DNA from: a virus
Lineage: Duplodnaviria > Heunggongvirae > Uroviricota > Caudoviricetes
Strand: one strand, 5' to 3'
DNA length: 63,851 nt
IMG/VR virus record: IMGVR_UViG_2879469214_000003
Coordinates: 64,001 to 127,851 of that record
The translations under genes and the position numbers were made by a program. Positions 6,201-24,725 of the stretch are shown here, piece after piece. The notes under the pieces were generated by a model, which saw nothing but the letters and a program-made list of their open reading frames with translations, made no database searches and had not been told where the DNA came from. Numbering within the stretch: position 1 is the stretch's first letter; the number at the start of each line of letters is the position of its first letter.

Positions 6201-7346
6201 TTATTTGAATGGATCATCGCTGTCGTTAGAGAATGGATCATTCCCAACTTGACTAAACGGGTCATCGGATTTATTTGTGTTGTTAAACGGATCGTCGCTT
6301 GTCAGTGTTGCTGTTTTTCTAAATTCCTCTTCAGTCAACAGCTCACGCATAATACTACCTTGTACATAGCTAATTACTTCCAATCCCTTTTTGTCTCCGT
6401 TGGTTACACGTTCTTGACGAGTTACTTTCTCATCGCTATCAACTTGACTAAATGGGTCATCAGAGGGAATCTCTTCAACAATATCTACATAAGCAAATGT
6501 TGCTCTGTTATTGTCTTGACCTGTTACTTCAATAAAATCATATGTATTAAGTGATGCGAATGCATCTGCCATTGGAATACCTTTCTCTACTTCTTTATGG
6601 TATACCATGAGTTCCACATCTTTCGGTTCGGAACGTTCTTTCCCATAATCTAAAAACACTGCATTAACTTTTGTGTCTTTGTTTTCATCTTGATATGTAC
6701 TACGAATTCCTAATTGCATACTAAAGTAATTTACTTCTCGGAATGCTTCACTATTGAAGTCTGTTACATAATCAAATTCTTGTCCTGCATGTTTTACTGT
6801 CTGTGTTGTGCCGTCATCATTTACAAGCAATCCATCTTTAATTGGTCTAATTGATGAAATAACTCGTTTAACAAATACTTTCTCTTCGGCGCTATTGTCT
6901 GGAGTAAATGTATCGAACTGGTATTGACCGCGAACTTCGTACCATCCATCCTCCTCGACCATTTGACCAAGACGCTCTGTCTTATCCCAATCTACTTCAA
7001 TTGCGTGATATGAATCATCAGGAAACTTTGTTTTATCATTGCGGTCTGCCCACACAACTTTAGCAGCCTTATTATTTGCACGACTGTATGGATAAGCGAA
7101 AGGTTGTTCCATGCCCGCAAGTTCAACTCGTAGTCGATTACTCAATGCTGTTTCAATTTCGAACTGGAGTACTCGACGCGGCTTATTCGTACGAGTAGTT
7201 GTTTCTTGATAAATCGGTTGCTTTTCCCAACTATCAGTTACTGGATCTTTCTTATTTACTGCACTAACTTTACCAATAAAACGAAACGAACTCTTAAACT
7301 CTTTACCTTGATGATTTTTGTTTACCTTGATTTTGTAGTCTGCCAT
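6201..7346 (-). CDS. Putative single-stranded DNA-binding protein
   Basis: Beta-rich OB-like segments, acidic tail with repeated DDPF motifs, adjacent to AAA ATPase. Confidence 0.55.
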   Translation of the reverse strand: MADYKIKVNKNHQGKEFKSSFRFIGKVSAVNKKDPVTDSWEKQPIYQETTTRTNKPRRVLQFEIETALSNRLRVELAGMEQPFAYPYSRANNKAAKVVWADRNDKTKFPDDSYHAIEVDWDKTERLGQMVEEDGWYEVRGQYQFDTFTPDNSAEEKVFVKRVISSIRPIKDGLLVNDDGTTQTVKHAGQEFDYVTDFNSEAFREVNYFSMQLGIRSTYQDENKDTKVNAVFLDYGKERSEPKDVELMVYHKEVEKGIPMADAFASLNTYDFIEVTGQDNNRATFAYVDIVEEIPSDDPFSQVDSDEKVTRQERVTNGDKKGLEVISYVQGSIMRELLTEEEFRKTATLTSDDPFNNTNKSDDPFSQVGNDPFSNDSDDPFK

Positions 7347-7619
7347 TAATTAATTTTATCTCCCTTTGTGTATATGTATTTTTTGATTGGTGTCTCTCTA
7401 GATAATCAGTTACATTGGAGGACTTCTCAATCTGCTCGTCATTTGTTCCACCACCTTTTCAAAATGAACTTGCTGCCTCTATATAATCACGCAAAGCGTG
7501 TTATTTTAATCTCCGTCATTCTTTCATATGCTCTCTTATGCTTCTCTATTCAAATCCAATTTCTTGATGAAACTATTATTTGACTAACTTCTTCTGTTCT
7601 TCGTTTAACTTACTCTCTT

Positions 7620-7687: not shown

Positions 7688-8140
7688 CTACATAAACTTC
7701 ATGGCAAATCTATCGAATCTAATTTCTGGTTCTGCAACATGCAACTCATAAATAACTCTAGTATCATTGCATTGGAATCTTTCCAATTGGTATTCGCTAA
7801 GACACTCTTGAAATAGTCGCTCCAAGGAACTCTTACGATCTTTTATATATGTATCATTAAAATTTTCATAAGAGTCGAAGCGAGTCATCTTTATCATCTC
7901 TTTTCTGTATCCATATAAAAAGGAGTGAATAAATTCAGTAGATTTGTCTTTGCAGTTATCTACAAAATAGTCCATGTTTCCTTTAAACATAAACTCGACC
8001 ATGTTTAAAAAAGTTCCAGCTCTCTTGCTAACCCCCAAAATCTCCATGACTTGTTGCATATGCTCATACCTCTCTCGTAAAAATGTATTTTCTGGATGTA
8101 AATTCTTCCTATGTACAAATTTTAATCCATCTTTATACAC
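7688..8140 (-). CDS. Hypothetical protein downstream of Agr-like cassette (start may be ATG at 8059)
   Basis: 150-aa ORF; GAGGT SD precedes the internal ATG at 8059. Confidence 0.6.
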   Translation of the reverse strand: MYKDGLKFVHRKNLHPENTFLRERYEHMQQVMEILGVSKRAGTFLNMVEFMFKGNMDYFVDNCKDKSTEFIHSFLYGYRKEMIKMTRFDSYENFNDTYIKDRKSSLERLFQECLSEYQLERFQCNDTRVIYELHVAEPEIRFDRFAMKFM

Positions 8141-8333
8141 TTGACAATCATATTTGGTAGGTGACTAAATTGTATTGACATATGCATAAATATGGAATCG
8201 ATCCCATAATAGTGTCGTAAAATGTCGACACTGTGTTTTACAGAACTAGTGTTCGTATTTATTATACAACAAATCCTTTGGTATAACTATACTTACTTAG
8301 AAACATAACCTGATCTTCTATGTATTTAGCTGT

Positions 8334-8711
8334 TTACTTACCAAACAGCTTTTTAATATAATTCTTTACTAATTCTATCTTGCTTTGGGCTATCGTTATG
8401 TACTCTTTTCTTTCATCATCAAAGTACACTTTACCTGTTTCATAGTCTACATCTTTCATCTTATAGAGGTTTCCTAGAATTCCTGAGTCGGTCAACATCA
8501 TACCTTCACGTTCATTCATTAACTTTAAAAATGCATCATTGCTATCGGATCTTATAAACTCTCCGTAACTGGTGTAGATAACGACCTTGTAATCTCCCTT
8601 TTTAAACAACTCTCTTCTGCACTGCCTAATGTCATCCACATCTAGCCATTCAGCAACATCACTTATTTTTTTACCCTCTCTCCTTTGAACCATAATTCTA
8701 TCTCTTATCAA
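8334..8711 (-). CDS. Stand-alone LytTR DNA-binding domain protein, no receiver domain
   Basis: 125 aa; VIYTSYGEF and LTDSGILGNLYKMKDVD resemble the LytTR RxHRSxLVN..I motif; follows agrBD. Confidence 0.7.
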   Translation of the reverse strand: MIRDRIMVQRREGKKISDVAEWLDVDDIRQCRRELFKKGDYKVVIYTSYGEFIRSDSNDAFLKLMNEREGMMLTDSGILGNLYKMKDVDYETGKVYFDDERKEYITIAQSKIELVKNYIKKLFGK

Positions 8712-8734
8712 GATGTTTCACCTCTTTTGAAATA

Positions 8735-8766
8735 GCTCTTCAACTTAACATTCTAAATTGAAGAGC
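8735..8766 (-). terminator. 9-bp hairpin between agrD and LytTR gene
   Basis: GCTCTTCAA / TTGAAGAGC with weak U-tract. Confidence 0.6.
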
Positions 8767-8778
8767 CCATTACTAAAA

Positions 8779-8913
8779 TTATTTCAATTCTTCTGGTACT
8801 GGCTCTGAGTGAATCAAAGTCCAGCTTGCTGTGTTAACACCAGCATAGGCAATCGCAGTAAACAAAAATCCAATTGCTGTCATAGTGAGTTTCATTACAT
8901 TCATTTTAATCAT
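8779..8913 (-). CDS. agrD: AgrD-like cyclic lactone autoinducer peptide precursor, 44 aa (not in ORF track)
   Basis: SD AAGGAGGTG; ATG overlaps agrB stop; MIKMNVMKLTMTAIGFLFTAIAYAGVNTASWTLIHSEPVPEELK: amphipathic leader, S-x4 ring, PxP acidic tail. Confidence 0.85.
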   Translation of the reverse strand: MIKMNVMKLTMTAIGFLFTAIAYAGVNTASWTLIHSEPVPEELK

Positions 8914-9440
8914 TTTACTTCACCTCCTTTCAAGCGAACCAAAAGGAGACTCTGAGCTAACATCGCTAGGCTAACTACTGGATTCTGAATTAAAAATCCT
9001 ATTAAAACTGTTAACATTGATATGTACTTTAGATACTTAAAATACTTTTTCAGTATCTTGGTTTGGTTTTCAATGTTGGATGGTGCATATACAGTAACCA
9101 AGATAAAAGCTATCCCAGAACAAATCCATTCAAATCCACCGATTAAACCTCCAAATTCAGCAATCGATAGTATTAATACAGATGAGTAGATTAAGCATAA
9201 TTCTGGATAGTCGCTATGATATCCACCCGATGTCATTCTGAGAATTGAAAAGGATAAAACGCTGATAAAAACATTCGATAAATTCCCTGTGAATACACCT
9301 ATTAACAATAATAATGAAATGGGAATCACATTTGTAAAGATGAATTTCAAACTATATCGAGTAATCCCAAATGGCGGCAATTCATTGGGAAACTGTGCCA
9401 CCAACCTTGTAGCAGTGTTGTTTACAAATTTATCAATCAT
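8910..9440 (-). CDS. agrB: AgrB-family peptide-processing membrane protease
   Basis: LRMTSGGYH and C (ELCLIYS) catalytic motifs, YAP motif, multiple TMs. Confidence 0.9.
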   Translation of the reverse strand: MIDKFVNNTATRLVAQFPNELPPFGITRYSLKFIFTNVIPISLLLLIGVFTGNLSNVFISVLSFSILRMTSGGYHSDYPELCLIYSSVLILSIAEFGGLIGGFEWICSGIAFILVTVYAPSNIENQTKILKKYFKYLKYISMLTVLIGFLIQNPVVSLAMLAQSLLLVRLKGGEVK

Positions 9441-10081
9441 CTAGCCTCACTCTTTTCTTTTACAACATCTACGAAAATAATATTAACTAAACAGATCAAC
9501 CAAAACAGTAATCCCAAATATATGTTTTCGATCTGTTTAACATTGTATAGAAGCGAAATGGCCAACAAACCGATGAAAACGCTAATTATATTTGTTCTAT
9601 TTATTTTAATTTTAAATGTGTAGTCATATGGCATTGTAGTATACCAAATTCTTCTTCTTTGTAGTGTTAAGGTAAGAATGATCAGCAATGAATTTCCGAT
9701 TAGTTGAATGTAAGATCCCAATTCGTCAATTGTTGCTGTGTAACTCTTGCTAGTAGCGAACATCATTATTATAGCAACCAGCATTTGAGAGATGAGTTGA
9801 GCCCCAAAACCATATATACTTAATTTCACACTGCTCCATGGACGAATTCTAAAATAAAAAGTAAGAAGTGTGACTAATAGAATAAAACAAATGAGAGGTA
9901 TGAATCCTGAGATCGCTTCATTTGATCTCATTAGAAATGTTCCTATTGATATTAAAACATTGCTAACTAAAATCTCTTTCCAATAATCTTTAAAACTAAC
10001 CTTAAAACACCCAAATGCAAACATGAAAATTGTAATCCCGTCCATTAAGCTCATTGCTGCATAAATTAAATCATTCTTCAT
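9437..10081 (-). CDS. Polytopic membrane protein resembling an AgrC sensor domain without a kinase domain
   Basis: 214 aa, about 6-7 TMs, no H-box or HATPase, stop overlaps agrB start. Confidence 0.65.
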   Translation of the reverse strand: MKNDLIYAAMSLMDGITIFMFAFGCFKVSFKDYWKEILVSNVLISIGTFLMRSNEAISGFIPLICFILLVTLLTFYFRIRPWSSVKLSIYGFGAQLISQMLVAIIMMFATSKSYTATIDELGSYIQLIGNSLLIILTLTLQRRRIWYTTMPYDYTFKIKINRTNIISVFIGLLAISLLYNVKQIENIYLGLLFWLICLVNIIFVDVVKEKSEAR

Positions 10082-10190: not shown

Positions 10191-10221
10191 AAAAAAGAAT
10201 AAAGTTTTCACTCTATTCTTT
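10191..10221 (-). terminator. Terminator after mrpR
   Basis: AAAGAATAGAG / CTTTATTCTTT stem followed by U run on minus strand. Confidence 0.55.
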
Positions 10222-11230
10222 AAAGTCCATACACTTTTTCAATTGTGGGAATATTCAAGAATTCTGACCTCATAGGCCCAGATTGATACTGACCCATTTT
10301 ATCTTTCTTTATGTTGAAGTGTTCAAATATTTCCGAATATTCTTCTGCCTCTAACTTATTCCGCTTATGATACAAGTCTCTTGCCACTTTCAACATTCCA
10401 CTATTTCTTACGTTTTTTACAGTTAATTGAGGTAAGTTGTGCCACTCCGCTATTTTTTTCAGTCTTGATTGAACTAAATATATAGAAGTTGGCTCATCTA
10501 TTCCCTGTTTGATTGTAGAATTAACAGCGGATCTAAGAATATAGTCGTTATCAATCAATTCATTTACACTACTTTTAATGTTGGGCTTTAGTATGCCATT
10601 ATTCTTAATGTATTTCTCTTCTTTATTTGCTATTCTTAAAATGTTATATAAAAAATTAGATATTTTTATTTCTCTACTTTCTTTAGTCCCATCTCCATTA
10701 TCATTGAATAAGGTAATTCTATATTTCCCTTCACTTCCAGTTATGTGTTCCATTTTCATATTAAGAATTTCACTGTTTCCTTTACCCATAATTCCCTCAA
10801 ATAAAGCTTGAACTATTAGCTTATCCTGAAAATTCAAACACCCATCTACGACCTCACCTATATCATCTTCACTAAACAATGATTGATGGTTATCAATTAT
10901 AAATTGGCTATACCACTCAAAAGATGTTACCGCACTTAATGGGTTTATATTGTCTTTACGCAAGTCTTGATCTATCGCCCATCCTATGTAGTTATTAATA
11001 ACACTACCTGCTTGCCTTAAAGATGATATTTTTTTTGCCTTCAATAAATACAGAAATTGAGATATTTCATCAAGATTAAAATCATAAAGATCTTTATCTA
11101 AACTTTTTTCCATTATAGCAGCCCTTTTGAAAACACGTCCATAGGCCAGTTCTGTTGCTGGGCTCAAGTCTTTAAGGTATCTGCTTTTTTGATCTTTGTT
11201 AAAAAAATCTTCATTGTATATTTTATTCAC
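10220..11230 (-). CDS. mrpR: SPbeta-type master repressor MrpR/YopR (inactive tyrosine recombinase fold)
   Basis: FNKDQKSRYL, KDLYDF, YIGWAI, NFQDKLIVQALFEG, LTVKNVRNSG match YopR pattern; catalytic residues degenerate; GTG start at 11230 after GGAGGAG. Confidence 0.85.
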   Translation of the reverse strand: MNKIYNEDFFNKDQKSRYLKDLSPATELAYGRVFKRAAIMEKSLDKDLYDFNLDEISQFLYLLKAKKISSLRQAGSVINNYIGWAIDQDLRKDNINPLSAVTSFEWYSQFIIDNHQSLFSEDDIGEVVDGCLNFQDKLIVQALFEGIMGKGNSEILNMKMEHITGSEGKYRITLFNDNGDGTKESREIKISNFLYNILRIANKEEKYIKNNGILKPNIKSSVNELIDNDYILRSAVNSTIKQGIDEPTSIYLVQSRLKKIAEWHNLPQLTVKNVRNSGMLKVARDLYHKRNKLEAEEYSEIFEHFNIKKDKMGQYQSGPMRSEFLNIPTIEKVYGL

Positions 11231-12545
11231 CTTTATCGTCTCCTCCAAACAGCTCAACAAAGTAATTAAAAAGTTGTTCACGAAGTCTTTTGTTATTAGT
11301 CAAAGAAGCTTTAGAATTTAATTTTGTCTCTAAATTCACTAAGTCATTTTCAATAATATTAATGTACTGTTCAATATCAGCAAATTCAATCTCATTATCC
11401 TTTAAAAATCTAGACAGTACAATGTAACCAATAAACATTAAAGGGTGACTCATCCATCCATTCTCACGCAATTGAGTATTTTTCGAAAACTCATTTGGAT
11501 AATAACCTACGAGATAAACAAAAAAGTCATTTAGATACTTAGAGACCTGTATTACATCAAATTTTCTTTCCATCTTAAATGCGCGGTCTATAGCATAAGA
11601 TAGAATATCGAATGTCGTTAGCTCACCAGCTAAATCACTTACAGTACTCCCTGAAGCAATCTGTTTACCAATTTCTGATTTGCGCTGTAGTTCGACTACA
11701 ACTTTATCAGATAATTTTTCTTGAGCGAGCTCCTTTCTTCTCTCTTTATTCAATACGTTAATAGTATTGAGTTGACTAAAAAACTGCTTAGATGTCTCAT
11801 AATCATAAATTCTAACTGATAGTATTTCATTAAAATCCGTCAAAGGATTAATGCTAATAGCGGCAACAAATCCCTGTAATCGATGGAAGCCATCAAGGAT
11901 AGAAATTACTGCTCCATCATTTATAGTCAACATTCTTGTATCTGAATTATAACTTACAGGATCAATTTCTGTAGAGTATACATTTAATGTTATCATGTCC
12001 TCAAAATACTTGTTATCAGAGGCTTTAGCAGCAATTCTCTTTACACTTGCTCTGTTTAAAATTGGAGATTTAACTATCCCACCTGATTTATTCTGCTTAT
12101 AAGTCACTCCACGCTGAGTTTCTTCTTCATAAATTATAAGTTGACTATTTACCATCTTGACCAATTCTTTAATTGAAATTTTAGTGAGATAACTGTCATA
12201 TTTAACTTCAATTACATCATTTAAAGTGTAAGGTAAATAAATTTTATTTTGTTCTTTTTCTTTTAATGATATTAAAGCTTCTCTAATTTCACGTTCTCCA
12301 AAATATCTTTCTCGACTAGGGTTGGATTGATCCACCTCATGTAATGCGCTAACAATGCCCACTAAATGAGGTATAGATAACTCAGTTATTGTTTCTTCAT
12401 TTTGATAAATTCTCTGTATCATTCCAAACGGTACATTGTATTCAACCAGTTTTAGATTTAACTCGTACTGAGATTTTCTTGAATTTTGTGTTGATTTTAA
12501 AGTTTCTAAAATTTCTTTCTCAATATCAGATCGATCAAATTTCAT
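11223..12545 (-). CDS. DndB/DGQHR-like protein, SPbeta YopQ (SroE)-like
   Basis: ILDGFHRL motif, 440 aa, directly upstream of mrpR as in SPbeta. Confidence 0.75.
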   Translation of the reverse strand: MKFDRSDIEKEILETLKSTQNSRKSQYELNLKLVEYNVPFGMIQRIYQNEETITELSIPHLVGIVSALHEVDQSNPSRERYFGEREIREALISLKEKEQNKIYLPYTLNDVIEVKYDSYLTKISIKELVKMVNSQLIIYEEETQRGVTYKQNKSGGIVKSPILNRASVKRIAAKASDNKYFEDMITLNVYSTEIDPVSYNSDTRMLTINDGAVISILDGFHRLQGFVAAISINPLTDFNEILSVRIYDYETSKQFFSQLNTINVLNKERRKELAQEKLSDKVVVELQRKSEIGKQIASGSTVSDLAGELTTFDILSYAIDRAFKMERKFDVIQVSKYLNDFFVYLVGYYPNEFSKNTQLRENGWMSHPLMFIGYIVLSRFLKDNEIEFADIEQYINIIENDLVNLETKLNSKASLTNNKRLREQLFNYFVELFGGDDKGE

Positions 12546-12721
12546 CTATGTACTCACCTCTAATAAGCATTATAGCACATATAGCTTAAAATAATACAGG
12601 GATTACTCGACCAAAAGAACTATTAGAACTATTTCTTATAATCTTATTTAACACTTTATTAACATCTACTTAGATAATACTACACAATAAATAGCATTGC
12701 AAAATAAAGAAAAGCCTCCAT

Positions 12722-12928
12722 TTAGAGACTTTTATCTTCCATCCATTTATGTAAATCTAGATTAGTCTTAATAACTTTTTTTTCAACTATGTCGTAAATT
12801 CTATATCCATTAAACATAAAATTGTTGAGTTCGTGAGGCTTTTCTGATCCCAAGTTCAAGCACTTCCAAGTTTGCATTTTTGTGTCCACATTATAATCAG
12901 TAAGTTTCATTAACCAATATCTCTTCAT
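12722..12928 (-). CDS. Hypothetical protein between mazF and yopQ-like gene
   Basis: 68 aa with SD GGAGGGG. Confidence 0.65.
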   Translation of the reverse strand: MKRYWLMKLTDYNVDTKMQTWKCLNLGSEKPHELNNFMFNGYRIYDIVEKKVIKTNLDLHKWMEDKSL

Positions 12929-12997
12929 AGCCCCTCCGTCTCGATAGTATTATGCAAATTATATTTGTGCAATTATCTCAAGACAAGCGGTAAAATA

Positions 12998-13369
12998 TTA
13001 CAAAGACAACGATAGTTGTAGTGCCTTGTTAATTGAATTTCCAAAGTGTCTTGGAAGTTCTGCAATTTTAAAGTCTAACTGATCTTTTGAAACTGTCATG
13101 ATTTGTTCCAACAGAATAATACTATCTTCATATAATCCAATTTCATCTTTATTTACTTTAACATGTGTGGGCATAGCCTTTTTCACTCTACTTGTAACTG
13201 GGGCCACAATCACTACTGGACTATATTTATTTCCCATGTCGTTTCCTAAAACGATACACGGTCTCTCTCCACTTTGGACGCTGCCTTTATTTCTTCCTAG
13301 GTTTACATTCCACATATCTAATCTCTTAACTTCTTTCATTACTCTCTCCATTACTACTGCCATAATCAC
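12998..13369 (-). CDS. mazF: MazF/PemK (EndoA-like) endoribonuclease
   Basis: GSVQSGERPCIVLGNDMGNKYSPVVIVAPVTS, PTHV, LEQIMTVSK; catalytic Arg and Thr present. Confidence 0.9.
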   Translation of the reverse strand: MIMAVVMERVMKEVKRLDMWNVNLGRNKGSVQSGERPCIVLGNDMGNKYSPVVIVAPVTSRVKKAMPTHVKVNKDEIGLYEDSIILLEQIMTVSKDQLDFKIAELPRHFGNSINKALQLSLSL

Positions 13370-13608
13370 CGCTCCTTATTATTTTTCAATTAAACTCTAT
13401 AATCTATATGTACCACATTCAATTAGTTTTTAAACCTTATGTACTATATAAGTATTATAATCGTTTAATTGATTTTTAACAATAGGAACATACGTTTGTC
13501 AAGAACATTTAGTAGGTGACTAAAATTTTCCTTAGATACCCGAATAACCTATTGACTTTTAGGATATATATGGTATTAAGACTAATCTAATCAATTTGGA
13601 GTGATACT

Positions 13609-14097
13609 ATGAAACGAAAAGATGAATGGAATGCAAATGATGATTTCAAACTTGCAGAGATGGTTTTGTCATACATTAAATATGGTAAGTCTCAACTTCA
13701 AGCGTTTGATGATGTAGGTGAGAAACTAGGTAGAACTCCAGCCGCTTGCGGATTCCGCTGGAATTCTAATGTAAGACATAAATATAAAGATGCAATTTAC
13801 ATGGCAAAAATGGAGAAATTAAATAGTAAAATAAAATCTTCTTCTGGTTCTAAAGAAAAGTCATTTTCATTCGATGATGTTATCGCCCATCTATTAGCTG
13901 CTAAGGATGGATTACAGCACCTTGAAAGAGAAAAAGAAGTCATAAGACAAAAGATACAGAATGTATCCTTAGAGATCGAAAATAAGCGTTCTGAGATGAA
14001 TACAGTTACGCTTCAGAATACTCAGGCTCTAGCAAAGATATTATCTAAAGCCGCAGATTTGGGACTCTTTGAACATAACAAAAAACCCGCCATTTAA
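13609..14097 (+). CDS. rsfA: RsfA/YlbO-family transcriptional regulator
   Basis: RKDEW..DD..LAEMVL..I..G.SQL.AF..VG.KL.RT.AACGFRWNS.VR signature. Confidence 0.9.
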   Translation: MKRKDEWNANDDFKLAEMVLSYIKYGKSQLQAFDDVGEKLGRTPAACGFRWNSNVRHKYKDAIYMAKMEKLNSKIKSSSGSKEKSFSFDDVIAHLLAAKDGLQHLEREKEVIRQKIQNVSLEIENKRSEMNTVTLQNTQALAKILSKAADLGLFEHNKKPAI

Positions 14098-24275: not shown

Positions 24276-24503
24276 AGATAAATCTCCTTATGTATGTTTT
24301 ACTGTGGCGTTTGGAGGTCATTTAACTATTTTTTGCACTAAGAAAACTTAACAGACCAGTCTATTAAACTGCCAGTTAAGCACTCTCTTTTATGGGGGTG
24401 CTTTTGTTATGCAAACTTTCTGTTACCCAAATGGTAACACTCTTCTTAATTTAAACCAAATACTGTCTGTTGTCAACTGAATTTGTATAAAGGGGGATTC
24501 TCT

Positions 24504-24725
24504 ATGGTTTCTCGTAGATTAAAGATACACTTAGGAAATATACTTGATAGCAAAGATATATCAGCTAGAGAACTATCAAGACGTACAGGAGTTCGTCATG
24601 TAACTATAAGTAAGATTGTTAATGGTGAAGCTGTATACATATCATTTGAAAATATTGAGAAGATCTGCAATGAGTTGAAAATTGATGTAAATGAAATTAT
24701 GTCTATGATCGAAGAAGATGAATAA
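24504..24725 (+). CDS. XRE/Cro-family HTH regulator
   Basis: ISARELSRRTGVRHVTISKIVNG...IEKICNEL; SD AAGGGGG. Confidence 0.85.
   Translation: MVSRRLKIHLGNILDSKDISARELSRRTGVRHVTISKIVNGEAVYISFENIEKICNELKIDVNEIMSMIEEDE

Follow-up and report, generated by a model that had tools for sequence, protein, structure and literature searches.

This report concerns mazF, a gene on the minus strand of a 63,851-nucleotide (nt) stretch of phage DNA, hereafter the window, which forms the latter half of an IMG/VR provirus of 127,851 bp (IMGVR_UViG_2879469214_000003). The source is a large SPbeta-like Paenibacillus prophage of ~128 kb. Its close relatives all lie within Paenibacillus genomes, and no near-identical DNA was found among known phages. 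The open reading frame (ORF) reported at 12998-13369 (-) is present, and the ATG at 13363 is the likely start of mazF, which gives a product of 121 amino acids (aa). As argued below, this gene is best explained, judging from sequence, as a phage-owned, fixed component of the control region in which it lies, and not as the stray half of a mazEF pair. The features discussed are collected in Table 1.

The mazF product matches the Pfam family PemK_toxin (PF02452) with an E-value of 6.9e-25 (87.8 bits; cut-off 23.1) over the whole domain, from profile position 1 to 109 of 109, and it also matches PHROG 1936, "MazF-like growth inhibitor" (E 1e-26). It aligns end to end with the B. subtilis EndoA structure 4MDX (E 1e-23), with 1NE8 aligned as well, and likewise with the S. 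aureus MazF structure (E 1e-23). Equivalents of R25, T48, S19, Q21 and E78-Q79 (B. subtilis numbering) are retained, and the motifs GS.Q.G.RP, ND.GN..SP, PTHV and DS.ILLEQI are all present. The protein is thus a member of the PemK/MazF family whose motifs predict nuclease activity, and the description of an intact EndoA-like toxin given in an earlier note on this DNA stands. In toxin family, catalytic Arg/Thr, RNA-groove motifs and length it resembles the toxin of chromosomal MazEF (EndoAI/EndoA, ydcDE), and it is 45% identical both to B. subtilis EndoA and to the MazF of the host. It differs from host MazF in its beta1-beta2 loop and in a beta3-beta4 loop that is one residue shorter; the C-terminal IDF tail is missing; and it carries a conserved N-terminal MAVAxE extension of 9-13 aa, which chromosomal MazF lacks.

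Relatives were gathered by protein searches and locus scans, which produced 18 non-redundant prophage loci. These share a single gene order: a divergent rsfA-like gene, mazF, p68 (encoding a conserved 68-aa protein), cargo, a yopQ-like gene, the repressor gene mrpR, a gene for a 214-aa protein, and agrB. The cargo between p68 and yopQ is variable (0-2 kb) and has been gained and lost among the loci. Three phage MazF types, with ~40% mutual identity, are found in one slot across the relatives; the catalytic Arg is invariant among them, and the position of T48 is occupied by Thr or Ser. The N-terminal extension, which reads MAVA(M/I/V)(E/D/N) and lies at 13331-13363 (-) in the window, is common to all three. 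For mazF, the ratio of nonsynonymous to synonymous substitution rates (dN/dS) is 0.03-0.18 at saturated dS, including in lineages without the helix-turn-helix (HTH) gene described below. MazF is therefore under strong purifying selection.

Unlike canonical mazEF, phage mazF has no antitoxin gene immediately upstream. The 245-nt spacer on that side has no ORF of at least 30 aa on the minus strand, and host MazE, used as a tblastn query, found no match in the 128-kb phage at E-values up to 1. The upstream neighbor is the divergent rsfA, whose product matches TIGR02894 (E 8.8e-34; 117 bits, slightly below the 126-bit cut-off) and Myb_DNA-bind_6. The absence of an upstream MazE and the position of mazF at the head of the yopQ-like/mrpR region, both claimed previously, are therefore as described, the latter by the DndB/DGQHR, PF22822 and PF22823 matches of the downstream products.

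Table 1. Features at and around mazF, in window coordinates
Feature	Position	Strand	Basis or remark
mazF, 121-aa PemK/MazF (EndoA-like) endoribonuclease	12998..13363	-	ATG 13363, Pfam, alignment
Ribosome-binding site AAGGAG	13372..13377	-	8 nt 5' of mazF ATG
UACAUA hexamer 2, mazF leader, inside conserved GTACATATAGATT element	13407..13412	-	holds the UACAU of the earlier note
UACAUA hexamer 1, mazF leader or transcription-start region	13438..13443	-	sequence
Predicted sigma-A promoter of mazF, TTGTTA-17 nt-TATAAT	13454..13482	-	10/12 matches
LexA (Cheo/SOS) box, GAACATACGTTT on the + strand	13486..13497	.	7/8 core positions
Operator-like element TTTTAGTCACCTACTAAAT, arms TTTAGT / ACTAAA	13507..13525	-	lineage-specific
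RsfA-like (Myb-type) regulator gene, divergent from mazF	13609..14097	+	TIGR02894, Myb_DNA-bind_6
Promoter-like site before p68, TTGTCT-17 nt-TATAAT	12958..12986	-	sequence
p68, conserved 68-aa protein	12722..12928	-	beta-beta-alpha-beta-beta-alpha model, pLDDT 94
Intrinsic-terminator-like hairpin and T run, after p68	12710..12733	-	sequence
YopQ/SroE-like DndB-DGQHR protein	11223..12545	-	DndB/DGQHR matches
MrpR/SroF-type master repressor, recombinase fold	10220..11281	-	PF22822, PF22823
Second LexA box, strict GAACTAGTGTTC	8243..8254	.	upstream of 123-aa gene; kept in 17/18 loci
Other copy of operator-like element, ATTTAGTCACCTACCAAAT	8152..8170	-	sole second copy
Gene for 123-aa all-helical protein (long ORF = p150)	7691..8059	-	LexA box and shared operator

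The mazF promoter, its LexA box and a shared operator

The predicted promoter of mazF is conserved in every relative in its TATAAT and in the TTGT of its -35 element. Beside it lies a LexA box of the Cheo type (core GAAC-N4-GTTC), which in the window sits 3 nt upstream of the -35 and is overlapped by an invariant TTGACA (13497-13502). When the rsfA-mazF spacers of nine loci were aligned (mean column identity 61%), two conserved blocks stood out. The first, next to rsfA at 13544-13569, reads as the rsfA promoter; the second, on the mazF side, reads cTTGACA-GAACAAAYGTTC-CgTATTGT and is followed by the invariant TATAAT ~20 nt on. The GGAG core of the mazF ribosome-binding site is also invariant in the nine aligned loci.

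The layout of the box at mazF is strict in 16 of the 18 loci, including those with two divergent MazF types. A total of 34 strict boxes occur in 366.6 kb of loci, and 33 of them fall at just two conserved sites. One is the promoter of mazF; the other is that of a gene for a 123-aa protein, past the agr cassette. Locus L117, from which mazF and p68 are both missing, keeps rsfA and the rsfA promoter block, and the LexA box is absent there; thus, the box goes with mazF and not with rsfA. In two host genomes, the promoters of lexA itself have boxes of these types, among them a GAAC-N4-GTTT variant that resembles the box of the window. The mazF promoter accordingly has the Cheo box that characterizes the LexA regulon, from which binding by LexA and induction by the SOS response would be expected. 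This conserved box, overlooked by the earlier note, is the strongest sign in the sequence of how the putative toxin would be restrained. It also separates phage mazF from the chromosomal gene, which stands in an operon behind alr, whereas the phage gene has its own LexA-boxed promoter.

An operator-like element, TTTAGTCACCTAC(T/C)AAA, is found just upstream of the mazF LexA box. It has exactly two copies in the 128-kb phage, one before mazF and the other before the second LexA-boxed gene, which is separated from mazF by the repressor/agr module. In the relatives, the same two promoters are paired by core sequences of their own: CGGCT in L111, L007 and L118, and another core in each of L005, the L120/L129 group and the L123/L125 group. 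The shared element is what one would expect the operator of a phage-lineage-specific regulator to look like.

The product of the second LexA-boxed gene is conserved, and its model has a predicted local distance difference test (pLDDT) score of 90. The model had no match in the PDB, and a Sar/YopT-like fold for it is thus unsupported. It may be the SOS-controlled induction factor of the phage and a positional analogue of Sar, the LexA-controlled antirepressor of phi3T, which adjoins the repressor operon (bioRxiv 10.1101/2025.11.27.690993). The mazF locus resembles the LexA-controlled antirepressor modules (phi3T Sar, SPbeta YopT, Rha/Ant) in having an SOS-boxed promoter adjacent to the repressor; it differs in that the boxed gene encodes an RNase toxin and not a repressor-binding protein, and no similarity to Sar or YopT was found for MazF, p68 or the 123-aa protein.

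A LexA-boxed orphan MazF was also observed in an unrelated prophage in the Paenibacillus sp. QZ-Y1 chromosome (L142:9435-11477). The order there is endolysin, holin, Cheo box, MazF, a 72-aa gene, a 110-aa gene, Rha/ANT antirepressor, Bro-N and a large serine recombinase. The Cheo box is strict, the -35/-10 layout is that of the phage mazF described here, and the MazF is 46% identical. As in the LexA-controlled antirepressor modules, the boxed gene is linked to an antirepressor, since MazF heads the same-strand Rha/ANT gene with two small genes between. This locus gives independent support and makes an orphan MazF with a LexA box, placed ahead of induction genes, a recurrent design.

LexA control of toxins is familiar in E. 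coli, where tisB, symE, yafNO and dinJ-yafQ are SOS-regulated; these are chromosomal and come with cognate antitoxins or antisense RNAs. The phage gene shares with them a position behind a LexA box, but the E. coli toxins belong to other families and another host phylum, and none is part of a phage switch.

These arrangements bear on whether mazF is a moron or defense cargo, for example an abortive-infection RNase directed against other phages, that came to lie next to the repressor region by chance and has no role in the switch of its own phage. PHROG 1936 is filed under "moron, auxiliary metabolic gene and host takeover", ~100 phage records have MazF-like genes, and accessory genes lie near mazF. 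However, the position and promoter architecture of mazF are fixed in 18 loci across three MazF types while the p68-yopQ cargo varies, one operator is common to mazF and the second promoter that has a LexA box, and PADLOC returned no match. We therefore give the cargo explanation hardly any probability.

Two further elements of the leader were set aside. The window mazF leader folds well (z -4.0), but the hairpin was dropped as a conserved RNA element, since the closest relative already lacks it and the predicted transcription start falls downstream of part of it. The GTACATATAGATT element was considered as a dispersed operator and found unconvincing, with 10 matches at up to two mismatches against 3.8 expected and one exact match.

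Downstream of mazF, the phage has an SPbeta-type repressor core, in which the MrpR/SroF repressor is preceded by the YopQ/SroE DndB-like protein. The YopQ-like protein is 31% identical to phi3T_96 and MrpR is 29% identical to phi3T_97; homologs of YopP, YopQ and SroF were detected by tblastn in the 128-kb phage. Directly behind mrpR, within 8334-10081 (-), lies AgrB (PF04647), beside the 214-aa protein, which has no Pfam match, and the agr-type cassette co-occurs with mazF and p68 in relatives. A scan of viral contigs with a single YopQ query gave no confirmed relative; alignment with MrpR succeeded. One 152-kb viral contig (L113/L118; IMGVR_UViG_3300012153_000089) has two MrpR-type genes ~13 kb apart, and the mazF-p68-yopQ module is found at only one of them.

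Candidate protein partners of MazF

The earlier note had named the 68-aa protein and host MazE as possible restraints on the nuclease. In the first case, mazF and p68 would form a toxin-antitoxin (TA) pair with the toxin gene first, p68 neutralizing MazF in an addiction or abortive-infection module. The two genes occur together in 18 of 18 loci and are gone together from L117. In the window and three other loci p68 directly follows mazF, with gaps of 69-76 nt; the 69-nt gap of the window is free of terminators, p68 has its own promoter-like site, and a terminator-like hairpin comes after it. The protein is small, has a confidently predicted fold and bears an invariant KPHELNNF.NGYRIYD patch. 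Against this, in 14 of the 18 loci the two are separated by an antisense HTH gene that is convergent with mazF, and they are therefore not one operon there. The divergence of p68 tracks that of RsfA, YopQ and MrpR (Pearson r 0.72-0.75) and that of MazF only weakly (Pearson 0.52, Spearman 0.26), the MazF types having been exchanged on a little-changed p68 backbone. Each gene also occurs without the other, a p68 homolog without MazF in L119 and LexA-boxed MazF without p68 in L142. Moreover, p68 is basic (pI 9.1), as is MazF (pI 9.3), and it matched no antitoxin by fold or sequence. The pair thus shows neither the single operon nor the joint divergence of a toxin-first TA operon. These results weaken the case for p68 as the restraint, and we consider such a pair unlikely.

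Searches with p68, whose gene opens the lysogeny-side operon in most relatives, were otherwise negative. Its model gave nothing with an E-value below 0.4 against the PDB (Foldseek) and nothing above 0.76 against the ESM Atlas; in a wide structural search the best Z was 3.8, and T4 Dmd, at Z 3.2, was noise. No match was found in Pfam, NCBIfam, PHROGs or PADLOC, or by tblastn against the phage collection. A relation to phi3T_92 was not supported (BLASTP E 0.026; hhalign probability 0.1), and BLASTP gave no alignment with phi3T_93. In L119 (1586-3899), the MazF-less locus, a divergent HTH gene stands with the p68-like gene (35% identical); the pair is followed by a 387-aa protein with an N-terminal HTH, which might be an RRNPP/AimR-like receptor.

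The HTH protein itself is a second candidate partner. It is a Cro/C1-type protein of 70-75 aa, encoded antisense between mazF and p68 in the 14 loci (for example L004:6374-6601(-), L006:6388-6609(-) and L129) and absent from the window; on this reading, the window lineage would have lost the partner gene, and its mazF would be a decaying or deregulated remnant. Xre-type HTH antitoxins occur in other families, such as HigA and HipB, and the HTH protein has weak HipB matches only. The MazF-HTH divergence correlation is the highest of the pairs tested (Pearson 0.87, Spearman 0.79), and only ~10-30 nt separate the stop codons of the two genes, too little to hold a terminator. Such covariation may, however, come from tight physical linkage alone. 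The HTH protein is a bare DNA-binding domain whose gene is divergent from p68, and in L119 a different small HTH gene accompanies the p68 homolog with no MazF. In the four lineages without the HTH gene, mazF is under strong purifying selection (dN/dS 0.03 for the window against L111, at saturated dS) and is therefore not decaying. A lost HTH partner is thus very improbable. In the relatives, transcription of the HTH gene would run antisense into mazF.

No alignment was obtained between the HTH protein and phi3T YopS. The window has a paralog of the HTH protein (41% identical) at 24483-24725(+), with an ORF for a small membrane protein after it, in a block that otherwise lies on the minus strand.

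A third possibility is that MazE from the host alr-mazE-mazF locus cross-neutralizes phage MazF, the toxin plugging into the host antitoxin pool. Each of four Paenibacillus genomes examined (4/4) has one canonical 116-aa MazF, and in the two loci read (L092 and L095) host mazF has alr and a gene resembling mazE as its immediate neighbors. Phage MazF keeps the core motifs, and interference with the MazE of the host is a known trait of phages of the SPbeta type (PMC10516654, PMC10769878). Yet phage and host MazF are only 45% identical, the beta1-beta2 and beta3-beta4 loops differ and the C-terminal tail is missing, and one host MazE would need to fit three phage MazF types that are themselves ~40% alike. 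We regard cross-neutralization as distinctly unlikely.

A protein with a MazE-type domain was observed in one lineage, that of L006 (= L114), where p68 is followed at 7016-7450(+) by the gene for a 144-aa protein. Its N-terminal part matches the AbrB/SpoVT "MazE_antitoxin" domain (PF04014, E 3e-8), and its C-terminal region, by eye, seems rich in Cys and similar to an HTH. It could be a lineage-specific MazE-fold regulator or antitoxin.

Taken together, the evidence points first to transcriptional silencing of mazF by LexA and by a regulator acting at the second operator, with p68 and host MazE as possible buffers.

UACAUA sites and the lysis-lysogeny switch

Known MazF proteins provide the context for the sites in the mazF leader. 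A U^ACAUA specificity is common to the MazFs of B. subtilis, Listeria and S. aureus (bioRxiv 10.64898/2026.08.06.743204), and UACAU is enriched in phi3T and SPbeta transcripts (bioRxiv 10.1101/2023.04.27.537455). The UACAU noted previously at 13408 lies at 13412-13408, and another lies at 13443-13439; both belong to full UACAUA hexamers. In phage upstream regions the base rate is 33-39% for UACAU and 24-31% for UACAUA, and a single UACAU in such a region is therefore unremarkable. UACAUA is present in the mazF leader of 11 of 13 clade loci examined, often twice, and in none of the 13 phage mazF coding sequences. The combination of leader sites and a site-free coding sequence lends modest support to self-cleavage feedback, which had been the third suggested restraint.

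On the scale of the whole provirus, TACATA is the most over-represented sense-strand hexamer (rank 1 of 4030), with 147 occurrences against 46 expected from codon shuffling (z 14-16), a 3.2-fold excess. The excess is spread over all three reading frames, and the reverse complement is at expectation. In the host chromosome, TACATA was found 14 times against 14 expected (120 kb sampled, 95.6 kb of it in called genes).

In the arbitrium phages, MazF is tied to the lysis-lysogeny decision. AimX and YosL inhibit host MazF (PMC10769878), which agrees with the earlier statement that these phages act on host MazEF through the two proteins. YopM in SPbeta and the YopN homolog phi3T_93 in phi3T, both encoded where the repressor operon begins, bind to MazE, which releases MazF (PMC10516654; PMC10769878); in later work, the proteins at the head of the phi3T operon were named SroA and SroB (bioRxiv 10.64898/2026.08.06.743204). 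Both lysis-lysogeny and induction of phi3T are gated by MazF (PMC10769878; bioRxiv 10.1101/2025.11.27.690993). The Paenibacillus phage resembles SPbeta and phi3T in that a MazF-linked function heads the yopQ-mrpR (sroE-sroF) operon, transcripts are rich in the MazF site, and a LexA-controlled gene flanks the repressor module. It differs in encoding the nuclease itself and in having a LexA box on mazF; an agr-type cassette after mrpR stands in the place of arbitrium. Homologs of AimR, AimP, AimX, phi3T_92, phi3T_93 and Sar were not found by tblastn in the 128-kb phage, a search that remote structural homologs could escape, and no yosL homolog was detectable.

Phage-borne MazFs as such are already known (PHROG 1936). 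One of them, ORF37 of Psychrobacillus phage Perkons, is likewise an orphan MazF of a large phage with an MrpR-like gene, and it too is followed by a small ORF and has UACAUA in its leader. In contrast to the mazF described here, it lies 13 kb from mrpR and has no LexA box, and the small downstream ORF has no evident similarity to p68. In a literature search that was incomplete, we found no description of a phage-borne MazF under SOS control or inside an SPbeta-type switch.

We propose that in the lysogen mazF would be kept silent at the level of transcription, with host LexA occupying the Cheo box that abuts the mazF -35 and a second, lineage-specific regulator occupying the operator common to mazF and the other LexA-boxed promoter. 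DNA damage would remove LexA, and MazF and the 123-aa gene product would then be made at induction. By analogy with host MazF, which in phi3T and SPbeta cuts the phage mRNAs and gates the choice between lysis and lysogeny, phage MazF would likewise cut sites of the UACAUA type and would serve the phage as a brake or timer of its own, acting on the switch through RNA. The two UACAUA sites in the leader, with none in the coding sequence, would provide negative feedback. That the phage has its own nuclease for the switch, as the earlier note suggested, is in keeping with the constant placement of mazF across 18 loci, the selection on it, the near-unique operator and the UACAUA excess, although these do not amount to proof. 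We give an even chance to the proposal as a whole, namely a phage-owned MazF that LexA silences and DNA damage frees, and that works within the lysis-lysogeny circuit on transcripts of phage and host that are rich in UACAUA. More specifically, the MazF arm of an arbitrium-type switch may have been taken into the genomes of a family of SPbeta-like Paenibacillus phages as a self-targeting RNase under LexA and a phage operator, cutting UACAUA-rich transcripts of the phage itself, governing induction timing or commitment with no dedicated protein antitoxin, and perhaps read together with the agr-type peptide signal encoded behind mrpR; this version we hold to be possible though doubtful.

Several points weigh against the proposal. 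The TACATA excess extends to a segment of phi3T and to SPbeta-like relatives that have no MazF; it therefore characterizes the phage family as a whole and not MazF carriers, and the UACAUA enrichment may reflect adaptation to host MazF and not to the phage copy. Depletion of UACAU/UACAUA in the lysogeny module is not significant (0.4-1.5/kb against a phage mean of 1.3), and thus no protected gene set is evident. Cutting at UACAUA by phage MazF is an assumption, made for a protein 45% identical to MazFs of known specificity. At the promoter, the window box is off at one core base (7/8) and that of L118 has only 6/8. With a position of about -50 to -39, the box is placed ahead of the -35 and not over the -10, which makes repression plausible but not certain. 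A leaky toxin promoter would need a buffer, for which p68 and host MazE are candidates. The family membership, catalytic residues, selection, synteny, LexA box, shared operator and motif excess are seen directly; toxicity, cleavage specificity, binding by LexA and induction by SOS we infer, as we do any effect in favor of lysis or of lysogeny.

The locus suggests that one branch of the SPbeta-type family took the nuclease aboard without its antitoxin and brought the gene under control of the SOS repressor of the host. If so, this would be a toxin made safe by transcriptional silencing and not by a protein antidote, and RNA control by MazF would be a conserved, portable part of SPbeta-type switches that extends beyond B. 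subtilis. It would also offer a possible explanation for the strong enrichment of MazF cut sites in the genomes of these phages.

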